From Amphibalanus amphitrite (Eukaryota): a stretch of 64,000 nucleotides of DNA. Each line of letters starts with the position of its first letter. Within the stretch, counting starts at the first letter, position 1. Below are positions 2,753 to 64,000 of the stretch, one piece after another. The position numbers and the translations under genes were made by a program. Where the stretch lies: NCBI RefSeq assembly GCF_019059575.1, contig NW_024881729.1, positions 544,406 to 608,405 of the forward strand, read 5' to 3'. The notes beneath the pieces are model-generated. The model saw nothing but the letters and a program-made list of their open reading frames with translations. It was not told the DNA's origin and ran no database searches.

Positions 2753-3342
2753 ATGAAGGTGACCGGCACCCCTCCGCGGAAGGTGGGACGTCCTCCCAGC
2801 GACTCCGGCTCCAGGCACGCGGCGCGCACGGCCTCGCCACGACCACGACCGACCAGCCCGGCGGCCAAGGCGGCCCGCGTCGCCTCCCCACAGCCGGCAC
2901 CGCCGCCTCCGGCCGCTGCCCGTACCCTACCGAGCAGCCCTGACCGGCCGGCGGCCCCGGCGGCCGCTGCCGCACCGCCGGCGCCACCGCCAGCCGCCCC
3001 CGCCAAACGGGGAGCCTCTCCGAGCAAAACACCCGCCACCGCCGGCCAGTCGGACTCAGGCAAGGCGCCGGCAGCCTCGGCGGCCAACGGGGCGTCACCC
3101 ACTGCGACAGGCACAACCCCCACGCCAGCCGCGGCGTCGGCGGAGGCCAAACCGCCTTCCGACGAGAAACCGGTGATGGTGGCCGGTCCTCCGCCTCTCG
3201 ACCAGCTCTGGAAGTCGTTCACCCCATCCATGTCCGTGGAAATGATGGCGCTGCTGTTACAGGAGCAGATTCGAGAAATGCGCTCACACCTGGCACGGAA
3301 AATGGCCGATACCGGAGGCCAGAGCAGTCCGGAGATCGTCAG
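2753..3342 (+). CDS. Pro/Ala/Ser-rich low-complexity protein, exon 1 (ATG at 2753; ends AG|GTGGGT, phase 2)
   Basis: ATG opens a reading frame that continues in frame through the 230-aa track ORF. The GTGGGT donor at 3343 joins in frame to the acceptor at 3551. Confidence 0.6.
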
Positions 3343-3551
3343 GTGGGTCTAGATTGTAGAGAGTGAGCGAGGGAGGGCGTGGGTACCGGAGGACAGAGCA
3401 GTACTGAGGTCGTCAGGTAGTTAGAGGGAAGGGAAAGAAGAGAACGAGAGGGAAACACTACACGTCGCGAATGTTAATGATATCGCACATCGGCATGTTT
3501 TGCCTGATGATTCTTCATTAGTTGACATAATCCGTGTTTGTCTGTTTACAG

Positions 3552-6500
3552 GTATAAGGCGGAGTTGAAACGGCTCCAGACTGCCTTTGATGACGCCACC
3601 AACTTACAACGAAAGACAATGAAGAAGAAGCGCAGCCCAAAGCCGGAGTCTGATAACTCAAAGCCTTCGGGGCCCGGCCGCAAACCAGGCGAGAAGCGAC
3701 CAAAGCACTCGCATCCTCCAAGCGGCGGCTCAGAGCGGAGCTCTGCGCCTCCAGCCGCCCATCAGACCGCTCATCAGACGACCCGGCCTACCAGCCCGAA
3801 ACACCGGCTTCAGAACGGTGGGACCCCGCCGGCGGCTGCGGCGGCGACCTCTACGCCCGCTGCCACTCCTCTCGCCGCGCCGGCCAGGGACCCTGCTGCA
3901 GCCAGTCCTGCCGTCACCTCTGCCTCGAGCGCCGTGCCCTCTGCGCCGGCGACCGCGGCGCCACCTCCTGCTGCAGCCGTACCTCCGGTGGAAACTCCGG
4001 CGGTGACGTCAGGGTTTCAGCTGGAGCTGGAGAAACTGCGGCAGGGGATGAGCAGTTCGGCTCAGCGTTCTCATGAGCAGCGGCAGCAGGAGGCGGCTGC
4101 CGCTGCTAATGCCTCCGCCGCCGCTGCCGCTGCTAACGCCTCCTCTGCCGCTTCCGCCGCTACTCCCGCTGATCGGTCGCCACCGCGCCGCGCCAGTCTC
4201 AGTGGCGCTGGCGGACCGCCGCTGCTGCCGTCTCCAGAGCAGCTGCGGGCTGCCGAGCCTCGCGCGCCGGCCGCGCCGCAGCAGCCGGCAGCCGACCGTC
4301 ACCACAGCCCCAAGAAGATCCATCTGTACGGCAGGTCTCAGAGCCAGCCGACGGCTGCGGCCGGGGTCGAGCCGGCGGACGACGAGGCTGCGACAGCAGC
4401 CGCTGCTGCCACCGCTGCAGCGGAGGCAGAGAAGAAGAAACGCTTCCGGGAGATCAACGAAGCCGAGATGAACGACGCGGTGGCTTCCATCATGGGTGGC
4501 AGCGACGCAGACTTCTCGCTGTGTGTGAGCCCCGAGCCGACGGTGAGCCGGCGACGCACCAGCTCAGAGTCCGGCACTCCGACCACGGCTGCGGCCGACC
4601 TGTCTGTGCGCCGGCCGAGCACGGACAGCCTTACGGAGCGGCTGGCTGCGCTGGACGGCGCGGGGGACGGCCGTGTGTCAGCACCCTGGGAGGAGGAGGT
4701 GATAGGGGGACGGACTGTCGGGGGCGACCGCGGCGGCTCGGTGATCAGCAGAGGCGGCGGGGAGGACAGTGGTGTCAGGGACGAGGCGCCCGAGCGGGCA
4801 CGGACAGCCAGTGCGGACAGTGTGGGCGCGGCCGCGATGGATGCAATCCTCAGCGGTCGGCAGGCGAGCACGGACAGTATCACAAACAGTTTCTTCTCGC
4901 CGCTGACGGACGGGGAGCGGCGCCCCAGTGGTGAGTGCTGGTCGGAGCCGGCCGAGACCGCCAGAGCCGGCCGGCGCTCCAGTCTGACGGACGGACGGGG
5001 CGGCGGAGACTCCCGCCGGCCGCCACCGGCGCCAGAGCCGCCCGCCGAGCCGCCGCCCCCGCCCCCGCCCCCGCCTCAGCCGCCGCCCGAGCCGCCCGCC
5101 GACCAGGGTCTGGACCTGTCCGGCGGCGGCGGCCAGCTAAACGAGGAGCTCGACTGTGTGATCAAGGACCTGATGAGCTTCAACCAGCTGAAGGAGGCGG
5201 CCTCTCCGCCGGCACGCAGCAGCATCCTTCAGCTGGCGGCGCGCCAGGCGGACATTTTCTCACCGGAGGGTACGTCAGCAGGCTCGCCGTTCAGTGCCAA
5301 CCATTCGTCACCGTTCTCGCCGGAGATGCAACCAGTGTCACCGGCGCGATCTGTGGCCACCAATCTGCAGAGTGGGTTCGCGCCGTCCCGCTCGGCGGTT
5401 CTGGCGGCGTTTGAGGGCGGCTCGGCGCCACAGCAGCCGACCCGTCAGCAGCCGCAGCAGCAGCAGCCGGCTGTGTCCCGCTCAGCCTTCAGTCCGGACC
5501 CGTACGGCGGCGGACACCGGCCGGGTGGTGGTGGCGCCCGCGCAGAGCCGGCGCCCCGCTCTAGGATCGAGCAGGCTGAGGGTCTGATGGCGCACTTTGC
5601 GCCGCGCGCGGACCCGGCGCCGCCGCCGCCCCCCAACCCGCCATCACCGGCTTCGCCACACCACCGCCAGCCGGTGTTCGCGCAGCACGGCGTGGGCCGC
5701 GCGGACCCCCAGCTGACGGGTGGGTTCGGCTCGAGACATGAGCAGGCGGTCAGCCAACAAAGCGGGCGGCGGGACTCCACATTCAGCCAGCCCAGCCCCA
5801 GGCAAGAACCGCATTTCAACCAGCCCAGTCCGAGGCAAGAACCTCATTTCAGCCAGCCGAGCCCGCGACAAGAACCGCATTTCAGTCAGCCGAGCCCACG
5901 GCAGGAGACACACTTCAGCCAGCCCAGTGCACGGCAGGAGTCGCATTTTAGCCAGCCCAGTGCTCGCCAAGAGACGCACTTCAGCCATCGTAGTCCGCGG
6001 CAAGAGCCGCAGCTCATTCAGAGGAGTCCGCGGCAAGAACCTCATGCGGGTCATCCGAGTCCACGGCAGGAGTCCTACATGAACCAGCCCAGTCCCCGCC
6101 AGGATCCCCACTTGAATCACCCGAGTCCCCGGCAAGATCATCATTTGAACCATCCCAGTCCCCGTCAGGATTCCCATATGAATCATCCTAGTCCCCGCCA
6201 GGACCATCATTTGAATCATCCTAGTCCTCGCCAAGATCATCATTTGAATCACCCCAGCCCTCGGCAGGATTCCCATTTGAATCACTCCAGTCCTCGGCAG
6301 GAGTCCCACCTTTCTCACCAGGGACTCCGCCAGGATCCCCATCTCACCCACCAGAGCTCCCGTCAGGACTCCCACCTGCTCTCTCACCAGAGTCCCCGTC
6401 AGGAGAGTCGCCTTTCCCGCTCGGACTCCCAGCTCTCACATGGCTCTCCACGGCAGGAGCCGCCACTGGGACTCAGCTCTCGGCGGGACTCCTTCGGTCA

Positions 6501-10785: not shown

Positions 10786-10984
10786 CTTGGCGCGTTTTTT
10801 GATGGTCATGCTGCCGTCGAGCCGGACGAAGCAGTAGCTGCGCATCTGGCAGAGGGTCTCGAACAGGTCGAGTGTCTGCGTGTAGTTGGAGACGAGCACC
10901 ACCTTGTCGCTGGTCTGCGTCTTCACCAGGGCCAGCAGGTAGTCCAGCACCGACACCTTGCCGGAGAGCTCCGGACGGACGCGT
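10786..10984 (-). CDS. RAD54L: RAD54-like, exon 10 ([44 protein letters not shown])
   Basis: Helicase C-terminal domain, motif IV region. CACTAG acceptor; AAG|GTGGGC donor. Confidence 0.85.
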
Positions 10985-11526
10985 CTAGTGGACACAGGGA
11001 GGGGGTATTAGACACATCAGAAGACACAGACACCCTGCCGGACAACTCCGGACGGACTCGCCTGGAGGACAGGGGCGGGTAGATATTAGAGGACAAAGAC
11101 ACCCTGCCGGACAGGTCCGGACGGACTCTCCTGGAGGACAGGGGCGGGTAGATATTGACACAGACACCCAGCTGCCGGACAGCTCCGGACGGACTCGTCT
11201 GGCGGACAGGCGGGTGCGGACTGCGGAATTTCAGATACGAGTGGACGCGGACACGCCTGGTGGACACAGGAGGGGAGAATGATATACTGTGGTGGTGTTT
11301 GCAGGTTAGTCATTCAGTTGCTTCACGGGATGCCCCTACTTTGTAACCTATACGGACCTTGCTAGTTTCCGACAGCCTCTAATATCGCGAGTCCGTCTGG
11401 GCAGGACTGTCATCCCTGACAAACTCACGGAGTATCTGTCTGAGTTCGTCTTGACTCTCTAACTCACTCTGTCGAGTGTCCGTCTGACTGTCTGAGTTAG
11501 CTCTGCCTCCCGAGTCCCCGACTCAC

Positions 11527-11677
11527 TTTGTCGAGTGTCCGTCTGGATAGAGCTGCAGCAGATGGCGCAGCTCACTGCCCGGCTCAGTGACCTTCTCGTA
11601 GATCAGGTCCGGGTGGTTGCACAGCTTCTTCAGACTGGTGATGGCGGACAGCGCCGACTGAGTCGATTTGCCGTGAC
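11527..11677 (-). CDS. RAD54L: RAD54-like, exon 9 (SALSAITSLKKLCNHPDLIYEK..)
   Basis: Conserved SITSLKKLCNHP block. CGCCAG acceptor; AA|GTGAGT donor. Confidence 0.8.
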
Positions 11678-16834: not shown

Positions 16835-17117
16835 CAGGGCTGCGGAGTCGGAGTCGGAGTCGGAGTCGGTCGGAGTCGACAGTTGTGACCAGAGTCGGAG
16901 TCGGAGTCGGAGTCGATTTTAGAAACCCGAGCCGGAGTCGGAGTCACCGAAAATCTGTCGACTCCGCAGCCCTGCTAGGTCTGCAGAGTCGGAGTTGGGA
17001 GTTGGAGTCGGTCGGAGTTGACAATTCTGCCCGGAGTCGGAGTCGGAGTCGGAGCTGGTTTTTGAAAGCCGGAGTCGGAGTCGGAGTCGCCGAAAATCCA
17101 TCGACTCCGCAGCCCTG
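16835..17117. mobile_element. Two adjacent palindromic MITE-like units (16835-16974 and 16981-17117) of the same family, (GGAGTC)n arrays between CAGGGCTGCGGAGTCG TIRs
   Basis: Unit 1 starts CAGGGCTGCGGAGTCGGAGTCGG and ends CGACTCCGCAGCCCTG. Unit 2 is a near-duplicate. Confidence 0.55.
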
Positions 17118-18093: not shown

Positions 18094-18539
18094 TACGTGC
18101 AGACCATCACAGAAACGTCAATTCTTCAGCAACCGGCTATAATTTCAAGATAGTTTCTTCACAAAATGTAGAACAACGTTGAAGCTACCCGCCAGGCACG
18201 AAACAATAGCCCTAACCTCTTCGGTTAGTTTAGGAAAGCGTCTTGAAAATAATCAAGATATTGATTCATCACGGCGGCTAATCCCGGCGAGAATCAATAT
18301 TTTGATTCCGCAAACAGCTGGCTAATCATTATTTTGATTCTGAAATCAGCTGGTTTATCAATATATTGATTCTGCGAACTGACTTTCTGCAGACGTACTT
18401 CACTCTTCAAATTGACTTATGGAATGTTTCTTGTGTGCAAATAATGCAAATTCAATAAATTCATGAAGATATTATCAGCACAGGATCGTGTAATTTTTTC
18501 TAGACCTTATTCCCACGGTAGACCAGGGATTTTCAGCAC

Positions 18540-21779: not shown

Positions 21780-24700
21780 TCGGTAAAGCTGGCGTCACCG
21801 TCGGCGGTAGGTAGGTAGGTTATGTTGTGGGTTCAGTAGGTGGAACTATGGTCATGAGTACCCAAATATAGGAACGTTCCCATTTTTGGGAACGGAGTTC
21901 CCAAATATGGGAACGGGCGTTCCCATTTATGAGAACGGAAGTTAATTTTTCGGCCGTTCGCCCACTAAAACTCATTAGTGCATCACGTCTCAAAAAAGTG
22001 CACGCTAATTTAAGTATCTACTAAGTCGATTCCAGGACAAATCTTCGTATGGCATTTCTTCGTCGCGCAATTCTTCGTCCGCATTTCTTCGTCCGCAAAT
22101 CTTCGTCGGCGCATTTATTCGTGTCGCATAACTTCGTCTCGCATTTCTTAGTAAGCGCAAATATTCGTAGCGCATTTTTTCGTATCCGCATTTCTTCGTA
22201 CGCGCATTTCTTCGTCAAGCATTTTTTCGTCCACGCATTTCTTCGTCTACGCAAATCTTCGTCCGCATTTCTTCGTCCACGCAAATCTTCGTCTGCGCAT
22301 ATCTTCGTCCGCAAATCTTCGTCCCCGCAAATCTTCGTCCGCAAATCTTCGTCCACATTTTTTCGTCCACGCATTTCTTCGTCTACGCAAATCTTCGTCC
22401 GCATTTCTTCGTCCACGCAAATCTTCGTCCCGGCAAATCTTCGTCCGCAAATCTTCGTCCGCAAAACTTCGTCCGCAAATCTTCGTCTGCAAATCTTCGT
22501 CCGCATTTTTCGTCCACGCATTTCTTCGTCCACGCAAATCTTCGTCCGCAAATCTTTGTCTGCGCATATTTTCGTCCGCAAACCTTTGTCTCCGCTATCT
22601 TCGTCTCCGCAAACATTCGTCCACAAATGTGGTTCAATAAAACCATGAAGAAATATCAGACCATCAAGTGATTGACGAATTTAATGCATGGAATGGATGA
22701 TCGAAACTTTTGAAGTCAGGTAGATGAGGTCTGTCAGGTGAAGCTATTGTATTTGGGAGCCGAGAATTGAAACATTCCATATCATTTGTGTCCCGGACAT
22801 TCTTTTTTCGCGGTCGATGAATGACAATACAATCTCTTGTACCCTCGCCGGCATAGGCGGCGGAACGGGGAGGGCACCGGGGCACCGTTCCCCTCTTTAA
22901 TTTGGCCTTTTAACAGTAGCCCTATGGGCGTTGCATGGAAAGAATGGGACTAAAAGTCGGCAGTGCCAAGCCCCCCCCCCCCCCTAATTGAATGTGTTCC
23001 GCCGCTACTGCTCGCCGGACCTATTTGTTTTCTACATATACGCCGGCCGAGGGGGGGGGGGCGGGCACGACCCCCCCCCCCTTCCCCCCATCGCCGTTTC
23101 GCCACTGGTGGAGCTAGCGCGTCGCGGAAAAAAACGAGCGTGTGCGCCGTTACGAGACGCAGAGATTAATACCCGATTTTAAGGCCTTCTAGGTCAGGGG
23201 TCGGCTTACGGCCCGCGGGCCGGATCCGGCCAGGAGGGTGACGGTTCGATCCGGCCCGCGACCATCTGACGTCCGGCCCGCGGCTGGTATCATCGACTTA
23301 CATCGTGTTCCGGCCCGCGGTTCCTTCAGAAATCGACTCCGATATAAAAGTGACTTAAATGTGCTTTGGCACAATAGTTCTTCCTTCGCACACTTCATGA
23401 GTTTATAAACACCATTTGCGGGTGTTTTTGTCTAATTCTACTTCTAGACAAAACTTGCGCGGGCCGGACGTCAGATGGTCGCGGGCCGGATCCAACCGTC
23501 ACCCTCCTGGCCGGATCCGGCCCGCGGGCTGTAAGCCGACCCCTGACCTAGAAGGCCTTAAAATCGGGTATTAACCTCTGCGTCTCGTAACGGCGCACAC
23601 GCTCGTTTTTTCCGCGACGCGCTAGCTCCACCAGTGGCGAAACGGCGATGGGGGGGGGGGGGGTCGTACCCGCCCCCCTCGGCCGGCGTATATGTAGAAA
23701 ACAAATAGGTCCGGCGAGCAGTAGCGGCGGAACACATTCAATTAGGGGGGGGGGGGGCACGGCACTGCCGACTTTTAGTCCCATTCTTTCCATGCAACGC
23801 CCATAGGGCTACTGTTAAAAGGCCAAAATTAAAGAGGGGAACGGTGCCCCGGTGCCCTCCCCGTTCCGCCGCCTATGCCGGCGAGGGTACAAGAGATTGT
23901 ATTGTCATTCATCGACCGCGAAAAAAGAATGTCCGGGACACATGATATGGAATGTTTCAATTCTCGGCTCCCAAATACAATAGCTTCACCGGACAGACCC
24001 CATCTACCTGACTTCAAAAGTTTCGATCATCCATTCCATGCATTAAATTCGTCAATCACTTGATGGTCTGATATTTCTTCATGGTTTTATTGAACCACAT
24101 TTGTGGACGAATGTTTGCGGAGACGAAGATAGCGGAGACAAAGGTTTGCGGACGAAAATATGCGCAGACAAAGATTTGCGGACGAAGATTTGCGTGGACG
24201 AAGAAATGCGTGGACGAAAAATGCGGACGAAGATTTGCGGACGAAGATTTGCGGACGAAGTTTGGCGGACGAAGATTTGCGGACGAAGATTTGCCGGGAC
24301 GAAGATTTGCTGGACGAAGAAATGCGGACGAAGATTTGCGTAGACGAAGAAATGCGTGGACGAAAAAATGCGGACGAAGATTTGCGGACGAAGATTTGCG
24401 GGGACGAAGATTTGCGGACGAAGATATGCGCAGACGAAGATTTGCGTGGACGAAGAAATGCGGACGAAGATTTGCGTAGACGAAGAAATGCGTGGACGAA
24501 AAAATGCTTGACGAAGAAATGCGCGTACGAAGAAATGCGGATACGAAAAAATGCGCTACGAATATTTGCGCTTACGAAGAAATGCGAGACGAAGTTATGC
24601 GACACGAATAAATGCGCCGACGAAGATTTGCGGACGAAGAAATGCGGACGAGGAATTGCGCGACGAAGAATTGCCATACGAAGATTTGTCCGGTTACGTA

Positions 24701-31864: not shown

Positions 31865-32301
31865 GTGAGAGCGGCGCCGCGCTGGGTCTTGCACTGGCGG
31901 CATGCTCACAAACAGTATTACAGCCATGGTGTGGGATTTTGGAAATTATAACTAGCTTCGCTATGTTTAACCATTCATAAACAATCAAGTACCCTCACAT
32001 ATTTCGCTTAGCTTGTAAAAATAATTTATTTTGACACTTGACAGTGGTCTGGTCCATATCAGCGACAATCTGTGCCTCTCGCTGATATGCCGTGCCCCCC
32101 CCCCCCCCCCCACACGCACCAACAGTCTTCCCCTCGCCCTCACAGGTAGTCGTTCCTCACAAGCACTGGCGTCGCTGGCTGGCCCGTGTGACTGTCTCCC
32201 CGCGTCTGACTATGCTCCCGCTGTCTCTGCAGGCGATCGTTCTGCAGAAGTACTGGCGTCGTTTGTTGGGCTGTGTGTCTCTCCCACAGACAGGCCCCAA
32301 T

Positions 32302-34073
32302 CCGACGACCAAATCCGACACCTCGGGACGAAGAAGGCGCCAGGACCGGACCGGGTATGCACCGAACACCTGCGGCACTTCGGACCGACGGCCTACCGGA
32401 CCCTTCTGGCACTCATCAACAGATCGTGGTCCAACCTCGAGACGCCCGCCTCATGGCGACGGGCGACCATCATCCCTATCTTTAAGGCCGGCAAAGACCC
32501 CAAACAAGTGGGCAGCTACCGCCCGATCGCGCTCACGAGTCACATCGCCAAGCTAGCGGAGCGGATGATCGCGGCCCGGACGACCTACCTCATCGAGCGA
32601 GACCGACTGGTGCCCCCCGAACAGGTCGGGTTCCGCCGCGGGAGGTCGGCGGAGGACAGTCTGGCCCGCTTGGTCCAAACGGTTCAAGATGGCTGGAATC
32701 GCCCCAAGCCGAGACGAGGCCCGGAGGATGGCGTGACGGCGGACCGCTTTGTCCTCCTGGCGTTCGACTTCTCCCGTGCCTATGACACGATCGATCACCG
32801 GATGTTGCACCTGAAGCTCCTCAAGCTCCTCCCCAGATGTCTCGCGACCTGGAAATTCCGGTTCCTTCGCGGCAGGCGGGCCCGCGTAGAGGTCAACGGC
32901 GCGCACAGCAGCGAGCGCGTGTTCCGCGCGGGCCTGCCGCAGGGCTCGGTCCTGGCACCGACCATCTACACGCTCTGGGCGGCGGACCTTATCGAGACCC
33001 TGCGGAACGCCTCGGACCGCACGGACGTCCTGATGTATGCGGACGACAGGGCCACACTGAGCGCTGGAGCCACCGTAGAGCTTGCGGTGGCTCGCGCCCA
33101 GAAGTCGGCCGACGCCCTGGCCCGATGGGCAAGGCACTGGAAGATGTCCATCGCCGGACAGAAGACCCAGGCGCTGCTGCTGACTCAGCGGAGCAGGGAC
33201 GAGCGCGGCGTGCAACTCCTGGCGAACGGCACGCAGGTCACCGGTGGCACCAGCCTACATCTTCTGGGGGTGACCTTCGACAGACTTCTACACTTTAAAG
33301 ACCACTGCGACTCTCTGCTGCGGCGGAAGGTCCGGCCGCGGACGGCACAGCTGCGGAGGATGACCGGCCGGGCCTGGGGTCTCCGCGAGGCGCAGCTCAG
33401 GACAGTCGCGAACGGGTATGTCCGGGGAGCCCTTGAATACGCAGCGGGTGCCTGGCTCCCGGCCGCGTCCCCGTCACACGTTCAGCTGGTGGAGCGCGAG
33501 CTGCTGGCGGCAGCCCGGGTGGTGACCGGATGCCCAAGGTCCACCCCCAGGGATCCCCTGCTGGCCGAGGCTGGCATCCCTTCAGCATGGTCCACCAGGA
33601 AGACGCTGGCCGCGCGAACGCTCTGCCGAGCGCTCGCCCTGCCGGAGGACGACCCTCTTCGCCGCGTCGCGGAGGCCGACCCACCCACTCGACTGCGGTC
33701 TACCACCGGCTGGCGACAACTGGGGCGATCGGCGCTGATCGAGGCGGGCGCCGAGGGAGTGACGGTGGAGCCGCGCCTCGAGGTTCCCCTCCTCCCGTGG
33801 ACAACCTGCCGCCCGATCGCCTTCAATCTGGACGTGGGACCCGGCGGTCGTCGAGCCTCCTCCAACGAGACGCGACGAGAGGCCGCGCGGCAGCACCTGG
33901 CGGCGCTCCCAGCCCAGGCCACGTGGATTTGGTCCGACGGCTCTGCGGACGCTGGGGTCAGGCGAGGCGAGGGGGCGGCGCCATCATCTTTACCGCGTCG
34001 GGGGAGACTCTCGAGGTTGAGGTGGTGGCGGGAGACCTCTGCTCCAGCACCCGTGCGGAGCTGTTCGCCCTGA
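32302..34073 (+). pseudogene. LINE RT-domain reading frame (frameshifted relative to the downstream RNase H/CCHC part at 33957-34801)
   Basis: The two overlapping track ORFs (680 aa and 423 aa) together cover RT, RNase H and the zinc finger. Confidence 0.6.
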
Positions 34074-34837: not shown

Positions 34838-34959
34838 AGGCCCCAATTGTCTGACGATGTTCCCTCTCCACCACAGGCGATCGTTCTACAAAAATACTGG
34901 CGCCGCTGGTTGGCCCGTGTTACTCCCCTGTCTGACGATATTCACGCTCTCCACCACAG

Positions 34960-35079
34960 GCGATTCTTCTACAGAAGTACTGGCGCCGCTGGCTGGCCCG
35001 TCGCCGGGTACAGCGGATGGCCAGGGAGCGGGATGTCGTGCTCCAGTGGATTGTGGACGACGCAGAACGGCGCAAACAG
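34960..35079 (+). CDS. IQUB-like, IQ-motif exon (AILLQKYWRRWLARRRVQRMARERDVVLQWIVDDAERRKQ)
   Basis: CCACAG acceptor; CAG|GTCAGA donor, phase 0. It matches the IQ consensus and is the last member of a tandem array of degenerate copies. Confidence 0.6.
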
Positions 35080-37387: not shown

Positions 37388-37796
37388 GTCAGCGGAGGAT
37401 TACTGACGGGTCAGTGGTACTCTAGTATATGTGAGAGAGGACAGCCTGCAGTCGAAGTACGGGGAGCGTGCGTGGGGTTTGGTCACTGGCAAGTCTTTCC
37501 TCGCTACATACGGTGTGAGAAAGGTGTACGACTTTCGCTACCCATGTGTGTGCGAGGCCTACGTGTGACTTATGATCTGGGTATGGGACAGGTTAATGAG
37601 TCTGACACATGTATTTGTTTCTGTGACAGGAGTCTGACTTCCGCCACCTGGTGCTGTCGCTGTGGGGCGGCCAGTCCTGTCTGACATACCACCTCTGTCT
37701 GTGTGTTACAGGAGTCTGACTTCCGTCACCTGGTGCTGTCGCTGTGGGGCGGTCAGTCCTGTCTGACATACCACCTCTGTCTTTCATGTGTTACAG

Positions 37797-37982
37797 GAGT
37801 CTGATTTCCGTCACCTGGTGCTGTCGCTGTGGGGCGGCCAGTCCTGCCTGAGCGCCGATCCGGACCTCTATGAGCTGCTGCTCTGCCGCTGGGACGTGGA
37901 ACAGCCCTGGACGCCTTGGAACTGCGTCCTGCTCACCAGAGACGAGACCGAGGCGCACTACAAGCTCGGAAAGCCGCAGCAG
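37797..37982 (+). CDS. IQUB-like, exon (ESDFRHLVLSLWGGQSCLSADPDLYELLLCRWDVEQPWTPWNCVLLTRDETEAHYKLGKPQQ)
   Basis: TGTTACAG acceptor; CAG|GTCAGT donor. Two degenerate tandem copies of the acceptor plus exon start lie immediately upstream, at 37621-37796. Confidence 0.6.
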
Positions 37983-39404: not shown

Positions 39405-42400
39405 TCAGTTGTCTAGCTCCAGTCGCACGATCTTGGTGACCGGTCGTTTGTACACACCCTTCCGCGTGTTCACCTCCACGACGCGGACGAGGCCGTCCTG
39501 ACCGGGGAACGTTCTGGCGACTCTGCCCAGGGGCCACGAGCCTCGAGGCACCGATGAGTCTGCGATCAGCACCATCTCTCCTTCACGCAGATTGCGTGAC
39601 ATCTCCGTCCACTTCTGTCTTGTCTGAAGACTTGGTAAGTATTCTCTGATCCAGCGCCGCCAGAACTCTGTGTTCAGCTGCTGGAGTCGACGCCACCTTT
39701 TTCTGGCGTTCTCGGGCGTGTCAGCGTCTTCAGAGCAGATATCCAGCTGGGTGTGACCGAGCAGGAACGCTGCCGGGGTGAGCGGTGGCGCATCAGACGG
39801 GTCAGATGAGACCGCGGTCAGTGGCCTGGTGTTCAGAAGCGCCTCCGCGCGGCAGAACGCGGTCATCAGTTCTTCATCTGTCAGATGGGCGGCTTCTAAA
39901 GTTCTTCGTAGTGCCCGCTTCGCACTTTTTACCATCGCCTCGCAGCCACCATTGAAATGAGGCGCTCCCGGAGGAATGAACTTCCAGTCTATGTAGAAGT
40001 GAGCGGTTTGTCTCTTGATCACTTCTTGGTCCAGAGCTCCGACTAGCTTCCGTAGCTCGCGACTTGCTCCAACAAAATTCTTCCCGTTGTCGGAGATGAT
40101 CTCAGACGGCCTCCCTCTTCGAGCGATGAATCTCAGGAATGCTCGCAGAAAACTGTCAGTGTCGAGTCCGCAGGCCATCTCCAGGTGCACCGCTCTACTC
40201 TGTAAGCACAGGAAGACGCAGAGGTAGCGTTTCAGCCGAGTCTTCCCTCTTCCCTGTCTGGTCTCGAACGGTCCTGCGAAGTCCACCGCGCAGTGACTGA
40301 ACGCGCGGCAGGAATACATCACTTCAGCTCCAGTCTTCGGCGCCATCATCTGCTTCTCTGGCTTCTTGGATCTCTTGATGCACTCTGTACAAGATCTGAT
40401 GCATTTCTTGACTTCTTCTCTGGCACTTATCACCCAGAACCGCTGGCGAAGTTCCGATATGGTGTGCTCAACGCCGAGCTCGTGTTCACCCTGCTCATGC
40501 ACATGACGTACCAGGAGACGGGTCACTTGATGGCCCTTTGGGAGAAGCACTGGGTGCTTCACATCAAATGGCAAGTCGCTTCTCTGGAGGCGTCCGCCGA
40601 CTCGCAGTAGTCCATGGTCATCTACAATCGGACACAGTCTGCGGATGCTGCTGCTTTTGAAGACTTGACCCTGTTTGCTTTCACCGGACGGGACTGCGAC
40701 TTGTGCTTCCAGCTGTCTTCGCTCCTTGGCAAAACATTCCTGAGCTCGCAGGAGCCAGAATGTCTCTGCAGAAGACATCTCCCGCCTGTCCAGTGATGAT
40801 GATGTGCCGTCGTTGTGTTCATCTGGGCACTCTCCTCTTGTTAGTCTCTTCAGTTTCTCGATAAACCTTAGAACCCACGCCGTCACCCTGACCAGCCTCA
40901 TCCAGCTTGAGAAGTGACTTGGGTGTAGCCGGAGGTCATCTTGAGTTTCTTTGATCAGAGTGCTGTGTACTGTCTTCGTCTTCTTCATCTCGCTCCTGTC
41001 GAATGGCTCTGATTGTAGATCTCTTGGCATTGGCCAGTTTTCTCGCTCTTCCACAAGAAATGCAGGGCCCGACCACCACAGGTCACTGGACTTCAGAACT
41101 TCCAGTGTTACGCCTCTGCTGGGAAGATCTGCTGGGTTTTGATTTCCGGGAACATGCTGCCATTGCTCAGGATCTGTCACTTCCCGAATCTCTGATATCC
41201 GATGCGCCACGAACGACTGGAACTGCTTGACTTCATTTCTGATCCAACAGAGCACGTTGATGGAGTCAGACCAGAACAGCACATCTGATATCTGGATCCT
41301 GAATGCTGCACAGGCCTTCTTCGCCAGTCGCAGACCCAGGAGGGCAGCCATCAGCTCAAGACGAGGGATGCTGACCTTTCTAGAGCGTGGGGTGACTCTG
41401 ACTCTTGCTAGAGCCAATCTTGCGGCAACGCCATCTTCACTTGTGGTCACGACGTAGACTGCGGCTGCATATGCCTGCTCAGAGGCATCTGAGAAGGCGT
41501 GTAGCTTCTGAGCTGTAGCCTTGGAGAAGGGGTGGATGCATCGGGGCACTAATAAAGAGCTCACGCGCTCCAGCTCCGTCACCCATTCCGCCCACTTGCG
41601 CTTCATGTCGGCGGGCAGCTCATCGTCCCATTGAAGACCTCGGGACCAAGTTTCCTGGAATAGGATCTTGCTTCGGACGGTAAATGGACTCATCAAGCAT
41701 AGAGGATCGAAGATGGCTGCGAGCGTCTTGAGACAGATCCTCTTGGTAGGCTTTGGCGTCATGTTCTTCTGAATGGTAGCATTGCTGCTAATGCTCAGCT
41801 TGTCTTCATCCGCATTCCAAACGACTCCAAGTGCATTGGCACGAGTTTGAGGGCCATCTTCGATAGTGAAACTTGACTCTTTGGCTCGCTCTTCTTCTGG
41901 TATGCTGTCCGTCACTGAGCTGCTACTGCTTCTCCATTTTCTTATCTTCATGCCGGCCAACTGCATCAGCTCTGTGAGTTGCTTTCTGGCTTCCTTCGCT
42001 TCATCTTCACTTTCGAATGAGACGAGGGCATCGTCCATGTAGAACGAGTCCTTGATCGTGTTGGAAGCGAGAGGATATCGTGAAGCGTGCTGCTTGGCAT
42101 TCTCCTTCATCGCGAACTGGGCTGCAAATGGTGCTGCAGCGTTTCCGAACAGCCACCTTTGTGCTTCATAGATATCTGGCTCTCTTCCAGCTTCGCAGTT
42201 GCGCCAGAGCACACGATGGAACTTCTGATCACCATCGGGTAGCTTCACCTGGAGAAACATCTCCGCGACGTCTCCAGTCAGAGCGATCGCATGACGGCGA
42301 AATCCCAGCAGGACTTCTATCAGGTCGTTACAGATGGATGGTCCAGGATAGAGTTCATCGTTCAGACTTCTCCCTTCAAATTTTGCAGCTGCATCGTACA

Positions 42401-44963
42401 CTACCCGTATCTTCGTCGTGGCGCGATCTTCCTTTACTACCGGGAAGTGGGGCAAGAACCAGCCGTCTAAGGATGCAGCCTCTCTATCTTCAGGTACGAT
42501 CTTCTTAAGGTATCCTTTAGATACGTAATCTTCAAAATTCGCATTGTACTTTTCTAGAAGAGACCTGTCTTCATTCTTTATCAGGCTCTGCTCAGTTTTT
42601 CTTAATCGGCTCACAGCGTATCCGAAGTTTCCACTCAACTCGGGCTGATCACGACGCCAAGGTACTGCTACCTCATATCGCTCGCCGTCGTACTTGAGTG
42701 AGTCTTGTGCCTTCTTAAGTGCGGACTTTTCCTCATACGAGAGAATCTTCTCATTCTCGTTTCTCACTCCGAGTAGTTCCAAGTCGGTCATAGCATGGAT
42801 GGCGTCTATTTCATCCTGATTGTTCACTGATACGTGAGTCCGTAGCGTCTTGCTGAAGTTTTTCTTCTTCGCATCTTCCACAGGCCCGAAGGCTGTCCAG
42901 CCGAGCGGGGTTTTCACTCCCACAGGTTCATGTGCTTCGCCTTGTCTTGTCTCCAGAGGAAGGAACAGCGACGTCGTAGAAGCCGTCAGTCCGATCAGCA
43001 TATCGATCCCCTGTCTTCGTGAAACGTTGGGGAAAGATATGTTCTTCAGATGGTTCCACTTGCTCTTCGTCATGTTCCAGTCAATTTTGGCTGAAGCGCT
43101 GGAGAGGTCATTAATGACGTACACGCCAATGCTGGTCTTGAACGGGCCGATTGTGGAACACATTTCCACCTCCGACTTCTTCATGTTCACTTGACTGCTG
43201 CCTTCCACTGTTCCCAGCTCAAACTGCTCTGGAACACCCTGGAGACCCAGCTCCTTAGAAGCGGCGTCCGTCAAGAAACTGGCATCCGAGCATGGATCCA
43301 GCAGGGCGTTGACGATAAGAGATCGTCCATTCGCCTTCACCTTCACGGGAACTGTCTGAAAAACGACGCGGCCTGAGTTCTGAGTCGCTGAAGCAGCGGT
43401 CCGATGAGTTAGCTCCCCTTCATGCTGTTCCTGAACTGGCAGTCTGGCAGTAGTATGACTTTGTGTCATCGCAGGGGTAGAATCACCGCGAGTCGCGTGG
43501 AGAAGACTATGATGGCTGCCACCGCATCCTGCCACTTGACATCCTGGGAACTTCCTGCAGCTTAATCCACGATGAGTGCCAGCCAGACAGCGAAAACATA
43601 TTCGCTTCGTCTTGCAGTAGCTGTACCGGCTGCCGACTGTCCACTTCTGGAACAGTGGGCAATCTGGAAGTTGGTGTTCTTTCTCGCAATAGAGACAGCT
43701 TGATGCCCCATGTTGGCTCTGTCTCTCTGTCTTGGTACTCCAGGTCTTCTTCATTTTCCTGGGAGAGTTCGTCTCTTCCTTCTTCATTCGGGAGCTGCTT
43801 GACATTTCTAGAGCTTCTTGTTCGTATTGGGCTTCTTCTGTGAGCCAGGTGGCGAACATCTTCAGATTGTCCTTCGCTCTTTGTCCTTGGATCCATCTTC
43901 GGTAGTTCTTCAGAAATGTCACATGTAGCTTTTCTTTGACGAGGATGTAGTAGGCGGACACGTCGGCCAAATCGCCTGCTGAGCCATGCTCTTCAAGATT
44001 TGTCACCAGGCTTTGAACCCGATCAGCGAGTTCCTCCAAATCTCTCGTAGCGCCCGGACGGACTGGCCTGATGCTCCGAATCTCCTCCAGCTGATGCCTG
44101 ATCCGTCTGCTGACGCCGCCGTACTTGCGTTCCAGCTCTGCCATGGCCTTCGTGAACCCAATGTCTGACGGTCTGTACCTGTCTACTAGTTTCAGAGCGT
44201 CACCTGCGAGACAGTTCTTGAGTTGCATCATTTTAAATTTTCCAGGAACGTTTTCGATGGTTACAAAGGCGTCAAACGTAGCTCGCCAGTCCTCGTATCT
44301 GTTTGTCTCGCCTGTAAAGACTGGAAGCTGTGGTCTCTTCAGTCCGTAGTTCGCCCAGTCGACCTTCACTCTCTCGTTATCTCGTGGCGACCGAGTGCTG
44401 TGACGTCGACCTTCGACTTCAGGTGAGGCTGCTTGCTCTTCTGGTTGCTGAAGCGCATCAGTTTCTTCAGTGACTGACTGATGCGACTCCGTTTCGTGCC
44501 TCAGGGCCTTCGTCTCGTTGCTACGCTTGTCTAGAGCTGCAGAAACTACAGTTCTCACTGATTTATTTGCCAGCCGCAGAGTCTTGGATATTTCTCGCTG
44601 AATATCGTCGTATTCTTCCCACGGATCTTCATCCTCCTCTTGTCCACTAGACATCTTGTTGGCCATCTCTTCCACTATGTTCAACAACTCATCGCTTGCC
44701 TTGTCTAGCTCAGAACCTATCTGCGAGATCTGCGAGACAGTTAGCTCACTGGTTTCAATCAGTGAATGCAGTCTGTTCTGTCCATCGCGTAGATCCCGAA
44801 GTAGTCTCGACTTCTTTCTTCTTAAATTCACTTCAGTTGTCCTCACATGGCTTTCTGTAGAAGTGGTAGTTGACATTGTCCCTTCAGTTCCATCCGTTAC
44901 TTCTTCTTGATTCTGACTGGTTTCAGCTTCACCTTGCTGCGTCTTCTTGCGCCTGTTACCCAT
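39405..44963 (-). CDS. Gag-Pol polyprotein (1852 aa) of the BEL/Pao element
   Basis: Uninterrupted ORF with diagnostic motifs: PQLPVFTGE..W..F..F (Gag DUF1759), CLYCEKEHQLPDC, LLDPCSDASF (protease), FYMDDALV (RT), DASEQAYAAAVY (RNase H), and H..H..C..C plus DFAGP..E (integrase). Confidence 0.85.
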   Translation of the reverse strand: MGNRRKKTQQGEAETSQNQEEVTDGTEGTMSTTTSTESHVRTTEVNLRRKKSRLLRDLRDGQNRLHSLIETSELTVSQISQIGSELDKASDELLNIVEEMANKMSSGQEEDEDPWEEYDDIQREISKTLRLANKSVRTVVSAALDKRSNETKALRHETESHQSVTEETDALQQPEEQAASPEVEGRRHSTRSPRDNERVKVDWANYGLKRPQLPVFTGETNRYEDWRATFDAFVTIENVPGKFKMMQLKNCLAGDALKLVDRYRPSDIGFTKAMAELERKYGGVSRRIRHQLEEIRSIRPVRPGATRDLEELADRVQSLVTNLEEHGSAGDLADVSAYYILVKEKLHVTFLKNYRRWIQGQRAKDNLKMFATWLTEEAQYEQEALEMSSSSRMKKEETNSPRKMKKTWSTKTERQSQHGASSCLYCEKEHQLPDCPLFQKWTVGSRYSYCKTKRICFRCLAGTHRGLSCRKFPGCQVAGCGGSHHSLLHATRGDSTPAMTQSHTTARLPVQEQHEGELTHRTAASATQNSGRVVFQTVPVKVKANGRSLIVNALLDPCSDASFLTDAASKELGLQGVPEQFELGTVEGSSQVNMKKSEVEMCSTIGPFKTSIGVYVINDLSSASAKIDWNMTKSKWNHLKNISFPNVSRRQGIDMLIGLTASTTSLFLPLETRQGEAHEPVGVKTPLGWTAFGPVEDAKKKNFSKTLRTHVSVNNQDEIDAIHAMTDLELLGVRNENEKILSYEEKSALKKAQDSLKYDGERYEVAVPWRRDQPELSGNFGYAVSRLRKTEQSLIKNEDRSLLEKYNANFEDYVSKGYLKKIVPEDREAASLDGWFLPHFPVVKEDRATTKIRVVYDAAAKFEGRSLNDELYPGPSICNDLIEVLLGFRRHAIALTGDVAEMFLQVKLPDGDQKFHRVLWRNCEAGREPDIYEAQRWLFGNAAAPFAAQFAMKENAKQHASRYPLASNTIKDSFYMDDALVSFESEDEAKEARKQLTELMQLAGMKIRKWRSSSSSVTDSIPEEERAKESSFTIEDGPQTRANALGVVWNADEDKLSISSNATIQKNMTPKPTKRICLKTLAAIFDPLCLMSPFTVRSKILFQETWSRGLQWDDELPADMKRKWAEWVTELERVSSLLVPRCIHPFSKATAQKLHAFSDASEQAYAAAVYVVTTSEDGVAARLALARVRVTPRSRKVSIPRLELMAALLGLRLAKKACAAFRIQISDVLFWSDSINVLCWIRNEVKQFQSFVAHRISEIREVTDPEQWQHVPGNQNPADLPSRGVTLEVLKSSDLWWSGPAFLVEERENWPMPRDLQSEPFDRSEMKKTKTVHSTLIKETQDDLRLHPSHFSSWMRLVRVTAWVLRFIEKLKRLTRGECPDEHNDGTSSSLDRREMSSAETFWLLRAQECFAKERRQLEAQVAVPSGESKQGQVFKSSSIRRLCPIVDDHGLLRVGGRLQRSDLPFDVKHPVLLPKGHQVTRLLVRHVHEQGEHELGVEHTISELRQRFWVISAREEVKKCIRSCTECIKRSKKPEKQMMAPKTGAEVMYSCRAFSHCAVDFAGPFETRQGRGKTRLKRYLCVFLCLQSRAVHLEMACGLDTDSFLRAFLRFIARRGRPSEIISDNGKNFVGASRELRKLVGALDQEVIKRQTAHFYIDWKFIPPGAPHFNGGCEAMVKSAKRALRRTLEAAHLTDEELMTAFCRAEALLNTRPLTAVSSDPSDAPPLTPAAFLLGHTQLDICSEDADTPENARKRWRRLQQLNTEFWRRWIREYLPSLQTRQKWTEMSRNLREGEMVLIADSSVPRGSWPLGRVARTFPGQDGLVRVVEVNTRKGVYKRPVTKIVRLELDN

Positions 44964-59599: not shown

Positions 59600-59963
59600 G
59601 TAAGTCAATGGGGCTGTGAGGCTAGTCAGCCTCTTCACACTACCATTAATTATGAGGCCGGTGAGAAGTGCATTAGGCTAGTCAGGAACGTATGACCGAG
59701 GTTTTTACCAGGGGTGGCGGACCGTGCTGACGAGTAATGACTGGTGTGACTGATGACTGATAAGTGACTGATATGACTGTTGTCACGGCAGCTGAACGCC
59801 TCACTGAGGTGTTACTGGAGTTCTGTCACGCCGGCTATGATCTTTCGTGTTTGACGCTGGCAGGAGTTTTGTCGCGACAGCTATAATGTGTAGTTTGTCT
59901 AACGTCGACAGGATTTCTGTCGCGCCGGCTATGATTTGACTAACTGGCTTCTGACGTCGACAG

Positions 59964-60095
59964 GAGTTTTGTCGCGCCGGCTACCTGCGTAAAGAGGAGG
60001 AGGTGGTGAAGGGTGTCACGGTGCTACGGTTCTTCTGGGGAGACGCCGCTTCTGTGGGTGTCGACGCCGTCGACCTGCTCAAGTTCGTCTGTACG
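59964..60095 (+). CDS. NSMCE3: NSMCE3-like, exon 5 (EFCRAGYLRKEEEVVKGVTVLRFFWGDAASVGVDAVDLLKFVCT)
   Basis: CGACAG acceptor; ACG|GTGAGA donor. Two degenerate tandem copies of the acceptor plus exon start lie upstream. Confidence 0.75.
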
Positions 60096-61939: not shown

Positions 61940-62219
61940 CTGCGGGCGACAGAGCGAGGGAGCAGGTAAGAGAATGAACGATAGAGCGCGGGGGAAATGA
62001 GCGCCATCCACCGGCCACCGCCGCCGGCCGCTAACCACTCAGGCGTTCAAAACTGACCGACCACGGAAACAGTGCAACGCAAGCAATAGTTGATCACTCA
62101 TTAAGCCATACATTAAGCCATACAGCATTACTTTTGATCACGCCACCAAGCTGCCGATTCGGGACCCATAGACAGCCTGAGAACGCCTCCTACCGGTTTG
62201 CCGTACCCACGCAGCCCAC

Positions 62220-62414
62220 CTTTTGCGCCTCGTCCAGGTCCTCGATGTTGTTGATGTAGATGTCTCCGAGCAGGATGAGCGCCTTGACGTGGTCCGGGTG
62301 ATGTTGTACCAGCCGGGTGAGGAAGGGCACGGCCTCCAGCGGCCGGCCGGCGTCACTCAGCAGCAGCGCCAGGTTAAACAGCGCCGAACGGAACTCGGGA
62401 CGCACCTCCACCGC
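62220..62414 (-). CDS. TMTC-like, TPR exon (AVEVRPEFRSALFNLALLLSDAGRPLEAVPFLTRLVQHHPDHVKALILLGDIYINNIEDLDEAQK)
   Basis: CTCTCCAG acceptor; AAG|GTGGGC donor, phase 0. Confidence 0.55.
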
Positions 62415-62644: not shown

Positions 62645-62926
62645 CTTTTTGAGCCAGGCCTCGGCGGGCACCAGGTCGTGGTCGTCCATGGCCAGCATGC
62701 CCAGGTTGAAGTAGACCCTGTCGAGTCCGACGGCCGACGGTCGGAGCGCGATGAGCCGGTGGAGCCGCTGGTAGGCGAGCGGCCGCCGCTCCGGGGGCCC
62801 CTCCTCCTGGATAATCACCGCCGAGTTGAGCAGCGCCTGCTGGTGGTCGGGGTCGTGCTCGAGCGCTCTGTCCAGGTAGGCCTGCGCCTCAGCCTGGAGG
62901 CCCTGCTCCAGACACACCACGCCCAG
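62645..62926 (-). CDS. TMTC-like, TPR exon (LGVVCLEQGLQAEAQAYLDRALEHDPDHQQALLNSAVIIQEEG..LGMLAMDDHDLVPAEAWLKK)
   Basis: CTGTTACAG acceptor; AAG|GTGAGT donor. It is preceded, in the transcript 5' direction, by two pseudo-copies. Confidence 0.55.
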
Positions 62927-63837
62927 CTGTAACAGACGAGAGAAGAGGAGGGAGGGGTGTTAGAGCATACAACTCCAGTCCCTGGGCCTGGAGGCCCTGC
63001 TCCAGACACACCACGCCCAGCTGTAACAGAGAGGAGTAGGGGGAGGGAGGGATGTTAGAGCACGCAACTCCAGTTCCTGGGCCTGGAGACCCTGCTTCAG
63101 ACACACCACGCCCAGCTGAGGAAGGGAGAGGAGATGGTGTGTTAGACAACCAAATACTGCGGTAGTCTCACAGCGAAATGAGCCCACGAGAAGAAGCGAA
63201 GACGGAGAGGAGGATGTAATCATTACGTTTACTAATCAATCACGTTTTGTTCTGTTGCGAGCTACACAACATAGCGTCTGGCACACAGCCCGTCAGTGAA
63301 GATAAGCCCACGCCGTGTGTGCTAGGCGGCCACCCCATCTCACATCATTTTCTCGGGAATCGGATGGTCCGCAGCCCCCACACCCCGTCCCAGTCGCCAT
63401 GGCGGCCCGGGTGGTAACACGACGCCTGACGCCGTATCGCGGGCCAACAGACGTCCGGCCATCGGCCCGCACTGCACACAACAGTGTGGTAAAGGAAATA
63501 CTACCACCAGACACCGCCCAGCAACACTGAACGCCCCAGCCCCCACCGACAGTGTGTATACTGTCTACATAACCACAGCCACAACAGGCTCCAACAGCCA
63601 GAACAGGGGGAGGGGTGGGTTGGGCCCCCGGCAATGGATAGTTAAATGACACGCTGAATGACTGGCAGGCTAGCCCACTGGCTGGCTGGCTAGCTGGCTG
63701 GCTGAAATAACTAACGACTAAATGAACAACGGACTGACTCACGGAAAATGACTGCTGTAAGGGAAGAGATCGGATTATCAGTAACACCCATTGACCAATG
63801 TAGCACCGACTGGTCCCGTTCACTCACGTTATAGTAG

Positions 63838-64000
63838 ATGTCCGGGTTGTGACTATCGTAGGTGAGCGCCGTCTCGTAGACCCGGCGCGCCTCCTGCGTA
63901 CGGTTCAGCTTGATGAGCACATCACCCCTGTTGATGTAGGCCTGCGTGTAGTCGGCCCTCATGCCGATCGCCTGTCGGTAGAGAGCGTCCGCCTCCTCCA
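63838..64000 (-). CDS. TMTC-like, TPR exon, partial; the gene continues beyond the window (..RADYTQAYINRGDVLIKLNRTQEARRVYETALTYDSHNPDIYYN)
   Basis: AAC|GTGAGT donor at 63832-63837. The frame is open to the window edge. Confidence 0.5.

Follow-up and report, generated by a model that had tools for sequence, protein, structure and literature searches.

A probable mirage-type minisatellite at a 3' splice site of a TMTC3 gene, with similar arrays at six other splice junctions of the same 64-kb window

Mirage minisatellites are head-to-tail arrays that straddle exon-intron boundaries and are known from lancelets (2002 NAR 30:2871, as cited in PMC3087553 and PMC3902484). Their units measure 10-160 bp and are 81-100% identical, and both 5' and 3' boundaries are affected (PMC3087553, PMC3902484). 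In the literature that we searched, mirages were reported only in cephalochordates, with none outside lancelets. Here we describe an array of very similar design at an intron-exon boundary of a TMTC3 (protein O-mannosyl-transferase) gene, which lies at one end of a 64-kb stretch of contig NW_024881729.1 (positions 544,406 to 608,405). We refer to this whole stretch as the window; coordinates are positions within it, and TMTC3 features are read on the minus strand.

Several properties of the lancelet mirages bear on the present case. Ebner et al. (2010) found 3 versus 6 copies of a unit in two haplotypes (PMC3087553), noted that one mirage had been mis-assembled in the draft genome (PMC3087553), and called the underlying mechanism unclear (PMC3087553). 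Pavelitz et al. (2013) described 60- and 108-bp mirages in PGBD5 (PMC3902484), and by reverse transcription-polymerase chain reaction the affected lancelet introns were regularly spliced, with no aberrant mRNAs (PMC3087553, PMC3902484). A related idea is the Rogers model, in which new introns arise, or existing ones shift, when splice signals are duplicated in tandem (Lehmann et al. 2010, PMC2891723; Hellsten et al. 2011, PMC3265369).

Anatomy of the TMTC3 array and its authentic junction

The minus strand carries three complete 3' splice-site modules at 62892-63146, each made of a CTAAC branch-point motif, a pyrimidine tract and CAG, and each followed by the same 35-nt exon start (Table 1). 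Tandem Repeats Finder reports a single array at 62892-63118 (period 95, 2.4 copies, 91% matches, score 373), and in a repeat search the starts of the three copies lie 94 and 95 nt apart. An exact 44-mer, CTGTTACAG/CTGGGCGTGGTGTGTCTGGAGCAGGGCCTCCAGGC (slashes mark splice boundaries), occurs twice on this strand (62892-62935 and 62986-63029), and a 26-nt exon-start core occurs three times (62901-62926, 62995-63020 and 63090-63115, the last with one mismatch); the expectation from shuffled sequences is zero in both cases. An earlier note, made from the sequence of this stretch, had proposed a triplicated acceptor plus exon start on the minus strand, and both repeat analyses recover it, at a spacing of 94-95 nt in place of the roughly 85 bp given there. 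The note had also treated the three copies as alike. This holds for two of them, while the 5'-most departs from the pattern: its upstream heptamer is CTTCCTCAG instead of CTGTTACAG, and 2 of the 35 nt of its exon-like part are mismatched. Even so, its acceptor region is related by homology to the intronic part of repeat units 1 and 2 (p = 0.01-0.02). The array therefore extends to about 63146, and consists of three acceptor modules and three exon starts. On the minus strand it reads ...gtctaacacaccatctcctctcccttcctcag/CTGGGCGTGGTGTGTCTGaAGCAGGGtCTCCAGGCccaggaactggagttgcgtgctctaacatccctccctccccctactcctctctgttacag/CTGGGCGTGGTGTGTCTGGAGCAGGGCCTCCAGGCccagggactggagttgtatgctctaacacccctccctcctcttctctcgtctgttacag/CTGGGCGTGGTGTGTCTGGAGCAGGGCCTCCAGGCtgaggcgcaggcctacctggac..., the third repeat copy being the first 35 nt of the authentic exon (62892-62926). 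The units show identities of 88-100% and a divergence of 6-12%, plus an indel. A 45-nt block is 100% identical between unit 2 and the real exon, and its flanks are much more diverged.

Table 1. Positions of the TMTC3 array features and of all boundary-spanning arrays in the window. For each TMTC3 acceptor, the distance is from the branch A of the YTRAY motif to the exon start, and the pyrimidine fraction is for positions -23 to -4.
Feature	Position	Strand	Period (nt)	Details
Upstream TMTC3 exon	63828..64000	-		truncated by window end; ends ...HNPDIYYN; donor GT 63827-63826 (aac/GTGAGT), 8/9 consensus
Phase-0 intron, 901 nt	62927..63827	-		final ~220 nt are the tandem array
Acceptor module 1 (decoy)	63116..63146	-		CTAAC 63141-63145; pyrimidine tract 90%; AG 63117-63116
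Acceptor 1 (decoy)	exon start 63115	-		branch A 27 nt from start; pyrimidine 0.90; AG-free 39 nt
Repeat unit 1, 95 nt	63021..63115	-		exon-start copy 63081-63115, 33/35 identical to real exon; then linker CCAGGAACTGGAGTTGCGTG, CTCTAAC (CTAAC 63054-63058), pyrimidine tract, AG 63022-63021 (decoy acceptor 2)
Acceptor 2 (decoy)	exon start 63020	-		branch A 35 nt from start; pyrimidine 0.85; AG-free 45 nt
Repeat unit 2, 94 nt	62927..63020	-		exon-start copy 62986-63020, 35/35 identical to real exon
Authentic 3' splice-site module (in unit 2)	within 62927..63020	-		CTAAC 62959-62963, pyrimidine tract, AG 62928-62927
Acceptor 3 (real)	exon start 62926	-		branch A 34 nt from start; pyrimidine 0.85; AG-free 44 nt
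Authentic TMTC3 exon, 282 nt, 94 codons	62645..62926	-		LGVVCLEQGLQAEAQAYLDRALEHDPDHQQ...AWLKK; donor GT 62644-62643, 9/9 consensus
Acceptor array, TMTC3	decoys 63115, 63020; real 62926	-	94-95
Acceptor array, RAD54-like (Helicase_C)	decoys 11256, 11198, 11130, 11061; real 10984	-	58-77	array 10984-11290
Donor array, same RAD54-like intron	GT copies 11467, 11428; real GT 11526	-	39-59	array 11380-11545
Acceptor array, IQUB-like (IQ motif + IQUB domain)	decoys 32146, 32233, 34877; real 34960	+	~83-87	array 32146-32300 and 34838-35001
Acceptor array, later IQUB-like exon	decoys 37630, 37712; real 37797	+	82-85	array 37614-37856
Acceptor array, MAGE-domain gene	decoys 59864, 59912; real 59964	+	~43-52	array 59812-59990
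Donor array, gene of no assigned family	GT copy 3417; real GT 3343	+	74	array 3308-3420

The spliced exons encode a tetratricopeptide repeat (TPR) protein, with best matches to arthropod TMTC3 (60-69% identity over 83-99% of the query). Identity is 64-69% to pancrustacean, 49-61% to chelicerate, 48-51% to vertebrate and 47% to mollusc proteins, a gradient that suggests a pancrustacean host. From these matches and an alignment with 11 homologues, we assign the gene, previously described as TMTC-like, as a TMTC3 orthologue. In the alignment the segment PDIYYN-LGVVxLEQG is contiguous and without insertion, and L58 and V61 are invariant. Downstream of the 35-nt repeat, the third copy (..QAEAQAYLDRALEHDPDH..) fits the family consensus QALAYLDKALExDPDH, and the first two copies do not. 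As the earlier note had proposed, only the 3'-most copy runs on into TPR-coding sequence; the three overlapping open reading frames (ORFs) with ..LGVVCL(E/K)QGLQA.. that it listed are also present. Judged by homology, functional mRNA would come only from the 3'-most acceptor (exon start 62926), with the junction ...PDIYYN/LGVVCLEQG. When the junction-spanning peptide was compared with a collection of 5.8 billion proteins, the best match was 57-63% identical and no same-species protein was found.

In the decapod Petrolisthes manimaculis (locus L001), an intron occupies the same position and has a single acceptor, gtgtgtgttgcag/ttgggcgtggtg, beside the exon start ttgggcgtggtgttactggagcagggg; there is no tandem array at that acceptor of its TMTC3 locus. 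The sea spider Nymphon striatum (locus L002), in which the comparison covered the intron position and not the acceptor region, also has an intron here. An intron position common to Petrolisthes and Nymphon means that the intron is old. The triplication, as judged against the decapod orthologue, looks lineage-specific. Elsewhere in the Petrolisthes TMTC3 locus (L001, 7409-7650) there is a 29-nt pyrimidine-rich minisatellite that stops approximately 3 nt short of an acceptor; the exon behind this acceptor is homologous to window exon 62190-62413. This minisatellite covers the pyrimidine tract and contains no exon sequence, and so is not a mirage in the strict sense.

The two upstream acceptors would have different effects on the message, both of which end in stops. 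Use of acceptor 1 adds 189 nt in frame and leads to a TAA at 62960-62962 (ORF 62960..63223), which falls within the CTCTAAC branch-point motif of unit 2, and with acceptor 2 the insertion is 94 nt and the resulting frameshift leads to a stop at 62889-62891 (ORF 62889..63149). Alternative 3' splice sites that yield protein isoforms were rejected on these grounds, as neither decoy gives an open in-frame mRNA. The best GT found in a search for donors inside the units has 6/9 consensus and would define a 9-nt micro-exon, compared with 8/9 and 9/9 for the real donors. Cassette or mutually exclusive exons were set aside because the copies span 35 of 282 nt and have no usable donor, and mini-exons or recursive splicing because no decoy exon start begins with GT and there is no useful in-frame donor. 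A search for RNA structure that might hide the decoys found the minimum free energy of the array to be no better than that of shuffled sequences (z = 0.02), and an Rfam scan of the window gave no match.

Boundary arrays and other repeats in the window

Whole-window Tandem Repeats Finder, self-blastn and a more sensitive ungapped self-comparison together revealed seven boundary-spanning arrays in the window, five at acceptors (including that of TMTC3) and two at donors. A bias towards acceptors only was considered and dropped when the two donor arrays turned up in the more sensitive self-comparison.

The RAD54-like gene contains one array of each type in the same intron. The unit of its acceptor array comprises a branch motif, a pyrimidine tract, CAG and approximately 37 nt of exon start; the real acceptor is TAG, and three of the decoys have CCAG. 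The donor unit is CAGACGGACACTCGACAAA/GTGAGT, with the copy at 11428 more degraded, and the donor and acceptor arrays together make up most of this ~540-nt intron. The RAD54 protein is 70-75% identical to mollusc, vertebrate and arthropod proteins alike, among the matches listed, and so gives no indication of the host. None of the listed RAD54 matches exceeded about 630 amino acids, which makes a taxon's absence from such lists a weak argument. No lancelet protein was among the matches, and the host is likely not a lancelet. GC content at third codon positions of coding sequence is ~0.9.

Two acceptor arrays lie in the IQUB-like gene. In the first, the unit consists of the acceptor and approximately 42 nt of the start of the IQ-motif exon, and the array is broken by a ~2.5-kb retrotransposon without long terminal repeats (LTRs), a long interspersed nuclear element (LINE), with an RVT_1 ORF at 32289-33980 and an (AAC)n tail. 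The LINE is flanked by a 10-nt target-site duplication, AGGCCCCAAT, at ~32292 and 34838. In the second, at a later exon, the unit consists of the acceptor and 50 nt of exon start, with 93% identity. The sequence GAGTCTGAC is found at the exon start and also at the branch region upstream of this later array.

The MAGE-homology-domain gene has the shortest unit of the set, an acceptor with approximately 20 nt of exon start, in three clear copies; a fourth copy at 59821 is doubtful, being preceded by GAG and not YAG. The remaining array is at a donor (3343), where the unit is the exon end TACCGGAGGCCAGAGCAGTCCGGAGATCGTCAG/GTGGGT, repeated 74 nt downstream.

All 13 decoy acceptors of the five acceptor arrays retain YAG. 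When decoys are compared with one another, exon-derived parts are better conserved than intron-derived parts in five of five acceptor arrays (85% vs 69%, pooled, Fisher p ~1e-7), with the reservation that these comparisons are not independent and that pyrimidine tracts are prone to indels.

Approximately 7 of 9 local tandem duplications in the window that are neither transposon-related nor coding span a splice site, and splice-site neighbourhoods make up roughly a tenth of its sequence. A rough exon census gives about 40 introns, so that roughly one splice site in ten is affected. The other local tandem repeats are transposon-related (350-830, 16836-17117 and 22038-24690), a single microsatellite, one small AT-rich repeat at 18291, and coding repeats (4092-6400).

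Some of these repeats, and one further element, merit a brief description. The region 4092-6405 (+) contains in-frame 27-, 33- and 99-nt tandem repeats within a GC-rich ORF (4216-5802 and beyond) that is rich in Pro, Ala and Gln; this appears to be low-complexity repetitive coding sequence belonging to the first gene of the window. The regions 350-830 and 16836-17117 hold elements that resemble miniature inverted-repeat transposable elements (MITEs) and consist of runs of GGCTCC/GGAGTC hexamers; the second is a tandem pair of 141-nt units, each with the inverted termini CAGGGCTGCGGAGTCGG...CGACTCCGCAGCCCTG. At 22038-22630 and 24097-24690 there are ~600-bp blocks of a 14-16/30/46-nt satellite (CTTCGTCCGCAAAT-like), in opposite orientation and ~1.5 kb apart, which may be the termini of one large element. 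An intact BEL/Pao LTR retrotransposon ORF of 1852 amino acids is present at 39405-44963 (-), with Peptidase_A17, RVT_1, integrase and DUF5641 domains.

Comparison with known systems and origin of the units

The TMTC3 array has the properties by which mirages are recognized: its units are imperfect and head-to-tail, each has an intronic and an exonic part, the last is continuous with the real exon, and arrays of the same kind recur. As in the lancelet examples, the unit joins the last part of an intron, AG included, to the 5' part of the next exon, the decoy splice signals are intact, several genes and both 3' and 5' boundaries are involved, and unit sizes range from tens of base pairs to ~160 bp. 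The differences concern host, evidence and density. The TMTC3 gene described here is closest to pancrustacean orthologues, in contrast to the cephalochordate hosts; copy-number instability and undisturbed splicing have been demonstrated in lancelets, whereas the present array is known from one assembled sequence; and seven arrays in 64 kb are above any density that we found stated in the mirage papers. We consider it probable (approximately 80%) that the TMTC3 array is a mirage-type minisatellite, formed by local head-to-tail duplication of a ~95-bp segment spanning the intron-exon boundary.

Other described systems resemble the array in part. The Rogers model also involves a small tandem duplication that doubles the splice signals, with one copy spliced out, the mRNA unchanged and nonsense-mediated decay (NMD) as a possible buffer. 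There, however, a duplication within an exon makes a new intron, whereas here an old intron has been lengthened and supplied with decoys. The gain of this intron by tandem duplication was rejected, given that Petrolisthes and Nymphon have an intron at the same phase-0 position. NAGNAG and other tandem alternative 3' splice sites likewise place competing acceptors upstream of one exon body, but those sites are a few nucleotides apart, share a branch point and tract, and usually give in-frame isoforms. The TMTC3 acceptors lie 94-95 nt from one another, none shares its branch point or tract with another, and use of either alternative leads to a stop. Mutually exclusive exons that arose by tandem duplication share with the TMTC3 array a local tandem duplication that includes the acceptor; they differ in that here only the first 35 of 282 nt are copied, and the copies lack a donor.

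The intronic half of the TMTC3 units is not similar to the continuation of the exon (p = 0.15-0.99), and the same is true at all five acceptor loci. A purely exonic origin, in which a duplication within the exon was later intronized, was rejected for this reason. Instead of deriving from the exon, the intronic half shares homology with the acceptor region lying upstream of the array, so each unit genuinely straddles the boundary. In the scheme that we favor, the ancestral segment would have begun ~57 nt upstream of the acceptor of the conserved TMTC3 intron and taken in the branch point, pyrimidine tract and AG, together with the first 35-38 nt of the exon. After its tandem duplication, replication slippage or unequal exchange between units would most likely have brought the number of acceptor modules to three. 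A unit of this kind straddles the junction, so each extra copy would fall inside the intron, which would have become 189 nt longer, and the coding sequence would be unchanged as long as the spliceosome takes the 3'-most acceptor and mostly ignores the decoys. Any mRNA made from an upstream acceptor would contain a premature stop and would presumably be removed by NMD. The TMTC3 array itself would be one product of a duplication process that has affected at least seven splice junctions in the window, and it is probably neutral, without demonstrable function of its own. The 45-nt block of identity fits gene conversion or unequal exchange with the constrained exon, although selection on the decoys may be another reading.

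Several points weigh against this interpretation. The assignment of the authentic site to the 3'-most acceptor is based on homology. By the simple measures of Table 1 the decoys equal or surpass the real acceptor, and we found no reason for their being ignored. The better preservation of exon halves and the intact YAG of the decoys may result from gene conversion by the constrained exon or from selection acting on the decoys. In addition, the observed excess of duplications at splice sites is not predicted by a purely random duplication process.

The last two points lead to the explanations that compete with neutral duplication. In one of these, the decoys would be kept in order to divert some TMTC3 pre-mRNA into NMD-targeted transcripts, and so to tune expression by regulated unproductive splicing. 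The intact decoys, equal in strength to the real site, the premature stops that follow from both, the YAG retained throughout the five acceptor arrays and the better-kept exon-derived parts are all in its favor. We nevertheless regard it as unlikely: the same structure occurs in unrelated genes, at donors as well as acceptors, which fits a mutational process better than gene-specific regulation; an array in the IQUB-like gene has tolerated insertion of the LINE; the decapod orthologue has no array; the RNA shows no excess structure; and lancelet mirages were reported without aberrant mRNAs (PMC3087553, PMC3902484). The excess at splice sites raises the separate question of whether duplication is actively directed to junctions by a mechanism specific to them, such as damage or template switching at collisions between transcription, splicing and replication, or pyrimidine-tract instability, as opposed to random duplication filtered by selection. 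The fraction of duplications that fall at splice sites, the proportion of splice sites affected and the RAD54-like intron built mostly of donor and acceptor copies speak for such targeting. On the other side, the figures come from 64 kb and an approximate exon census, arrays are detected by their similarity, and gene conversion from a constrained exon may keep boundary arrays recognizable for longer than intronic ones. We hold targeting to be a tentative proposal, less probable than not but a stronger contender than regulated splicing. A specific variant, reverse transcription of a lariat-3' exon intermediate, was rejected since the units start 0-25 nt upstream of the branch motif and since donors are duplicated too.

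Two further explanations are both very improbable. An assembly artefact, or a false tandem array produced by collapsing haplotypes, has some precedent in that the mis-assembled lancelet mirage marks copy number as error-prone (PMC3087553). The units of the TMTC3 array differ by 6-12%, however, which argues against both an assembly artefact and a very recent event; the indel between them, the absence of any N from the window, the recurrence at seven independent loci with unrelated unit sequences, and the LINE with its target-site duplication inside one array point in the same direction. Still less probable is a dispersed repeat or transposon (a short interspersed nuclear element, a MITE or an introner-like element) that resembles the exon start by chance. 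The MITE-like elements, LINE and BEL/Pao element of the window indicate that transposons are active in this genome, but blastn-short and pattern searches found no other copy of the unit in the 64 kb, and the 26-mer core had no match in JGI metagenome contigs. Within the reach of these searches there is no support for the outcome that the earlier note named as refuting its reading, a 45-mer that is a common dispersed repeat. Moreover, the repeated 35 nt are the conserved start of a coding exon (compare ttgggcgtggtgttactggagcagggg of Petrolisthes), and the arrangement is strictly head-to-tail, without terminal (inverted) repeats.

Implications for splicing, annotation and intron evolution

To us, the interest of these arrays lies in their density, their apparent occurrence outside cephalochordates, and the presumed avoidance of decoys whose apparent quality equals or exceeds that of the real site. 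For annotation, decoy acceptors identical to the real one generate spurious ORFs and mislead gene predictors, and a practical rule is to take the 3'-most acceptor copy or the 5'-most donor copy as the real site. The boundary arrays are also likely to be length-polymorphic markers. For studies of splicing, the TMTC3 intron offers three equal-looking acceptor modules in a span of 190 nt, of which a single one would allow a functional protein, and so provides a test of 3' splice-site choice and NMD.

If the host is an arthropod, the little-studied mirage phenomenon reaches beyond cephalochordates. A bolder form of this conclusion, which we put forward as a possibility that we would not yet bet on, is that mirages are not confined to lancelets and occupy about one in ten splice sites of an apparently pancrustacean genome, far above the ordinary rate of duplication in introns and intergenic sequence. 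If true, this would point either to duplications being steered to exon-intron junctions or to the upkeep of arrays by gene conversion from exons, and the genome would be a natural experiment on how the spliceosome ignores decoys that are identical in sequence to real sites. For intron evolution, the window suggests that introns can grow by repeated duplication of their own boundaries.

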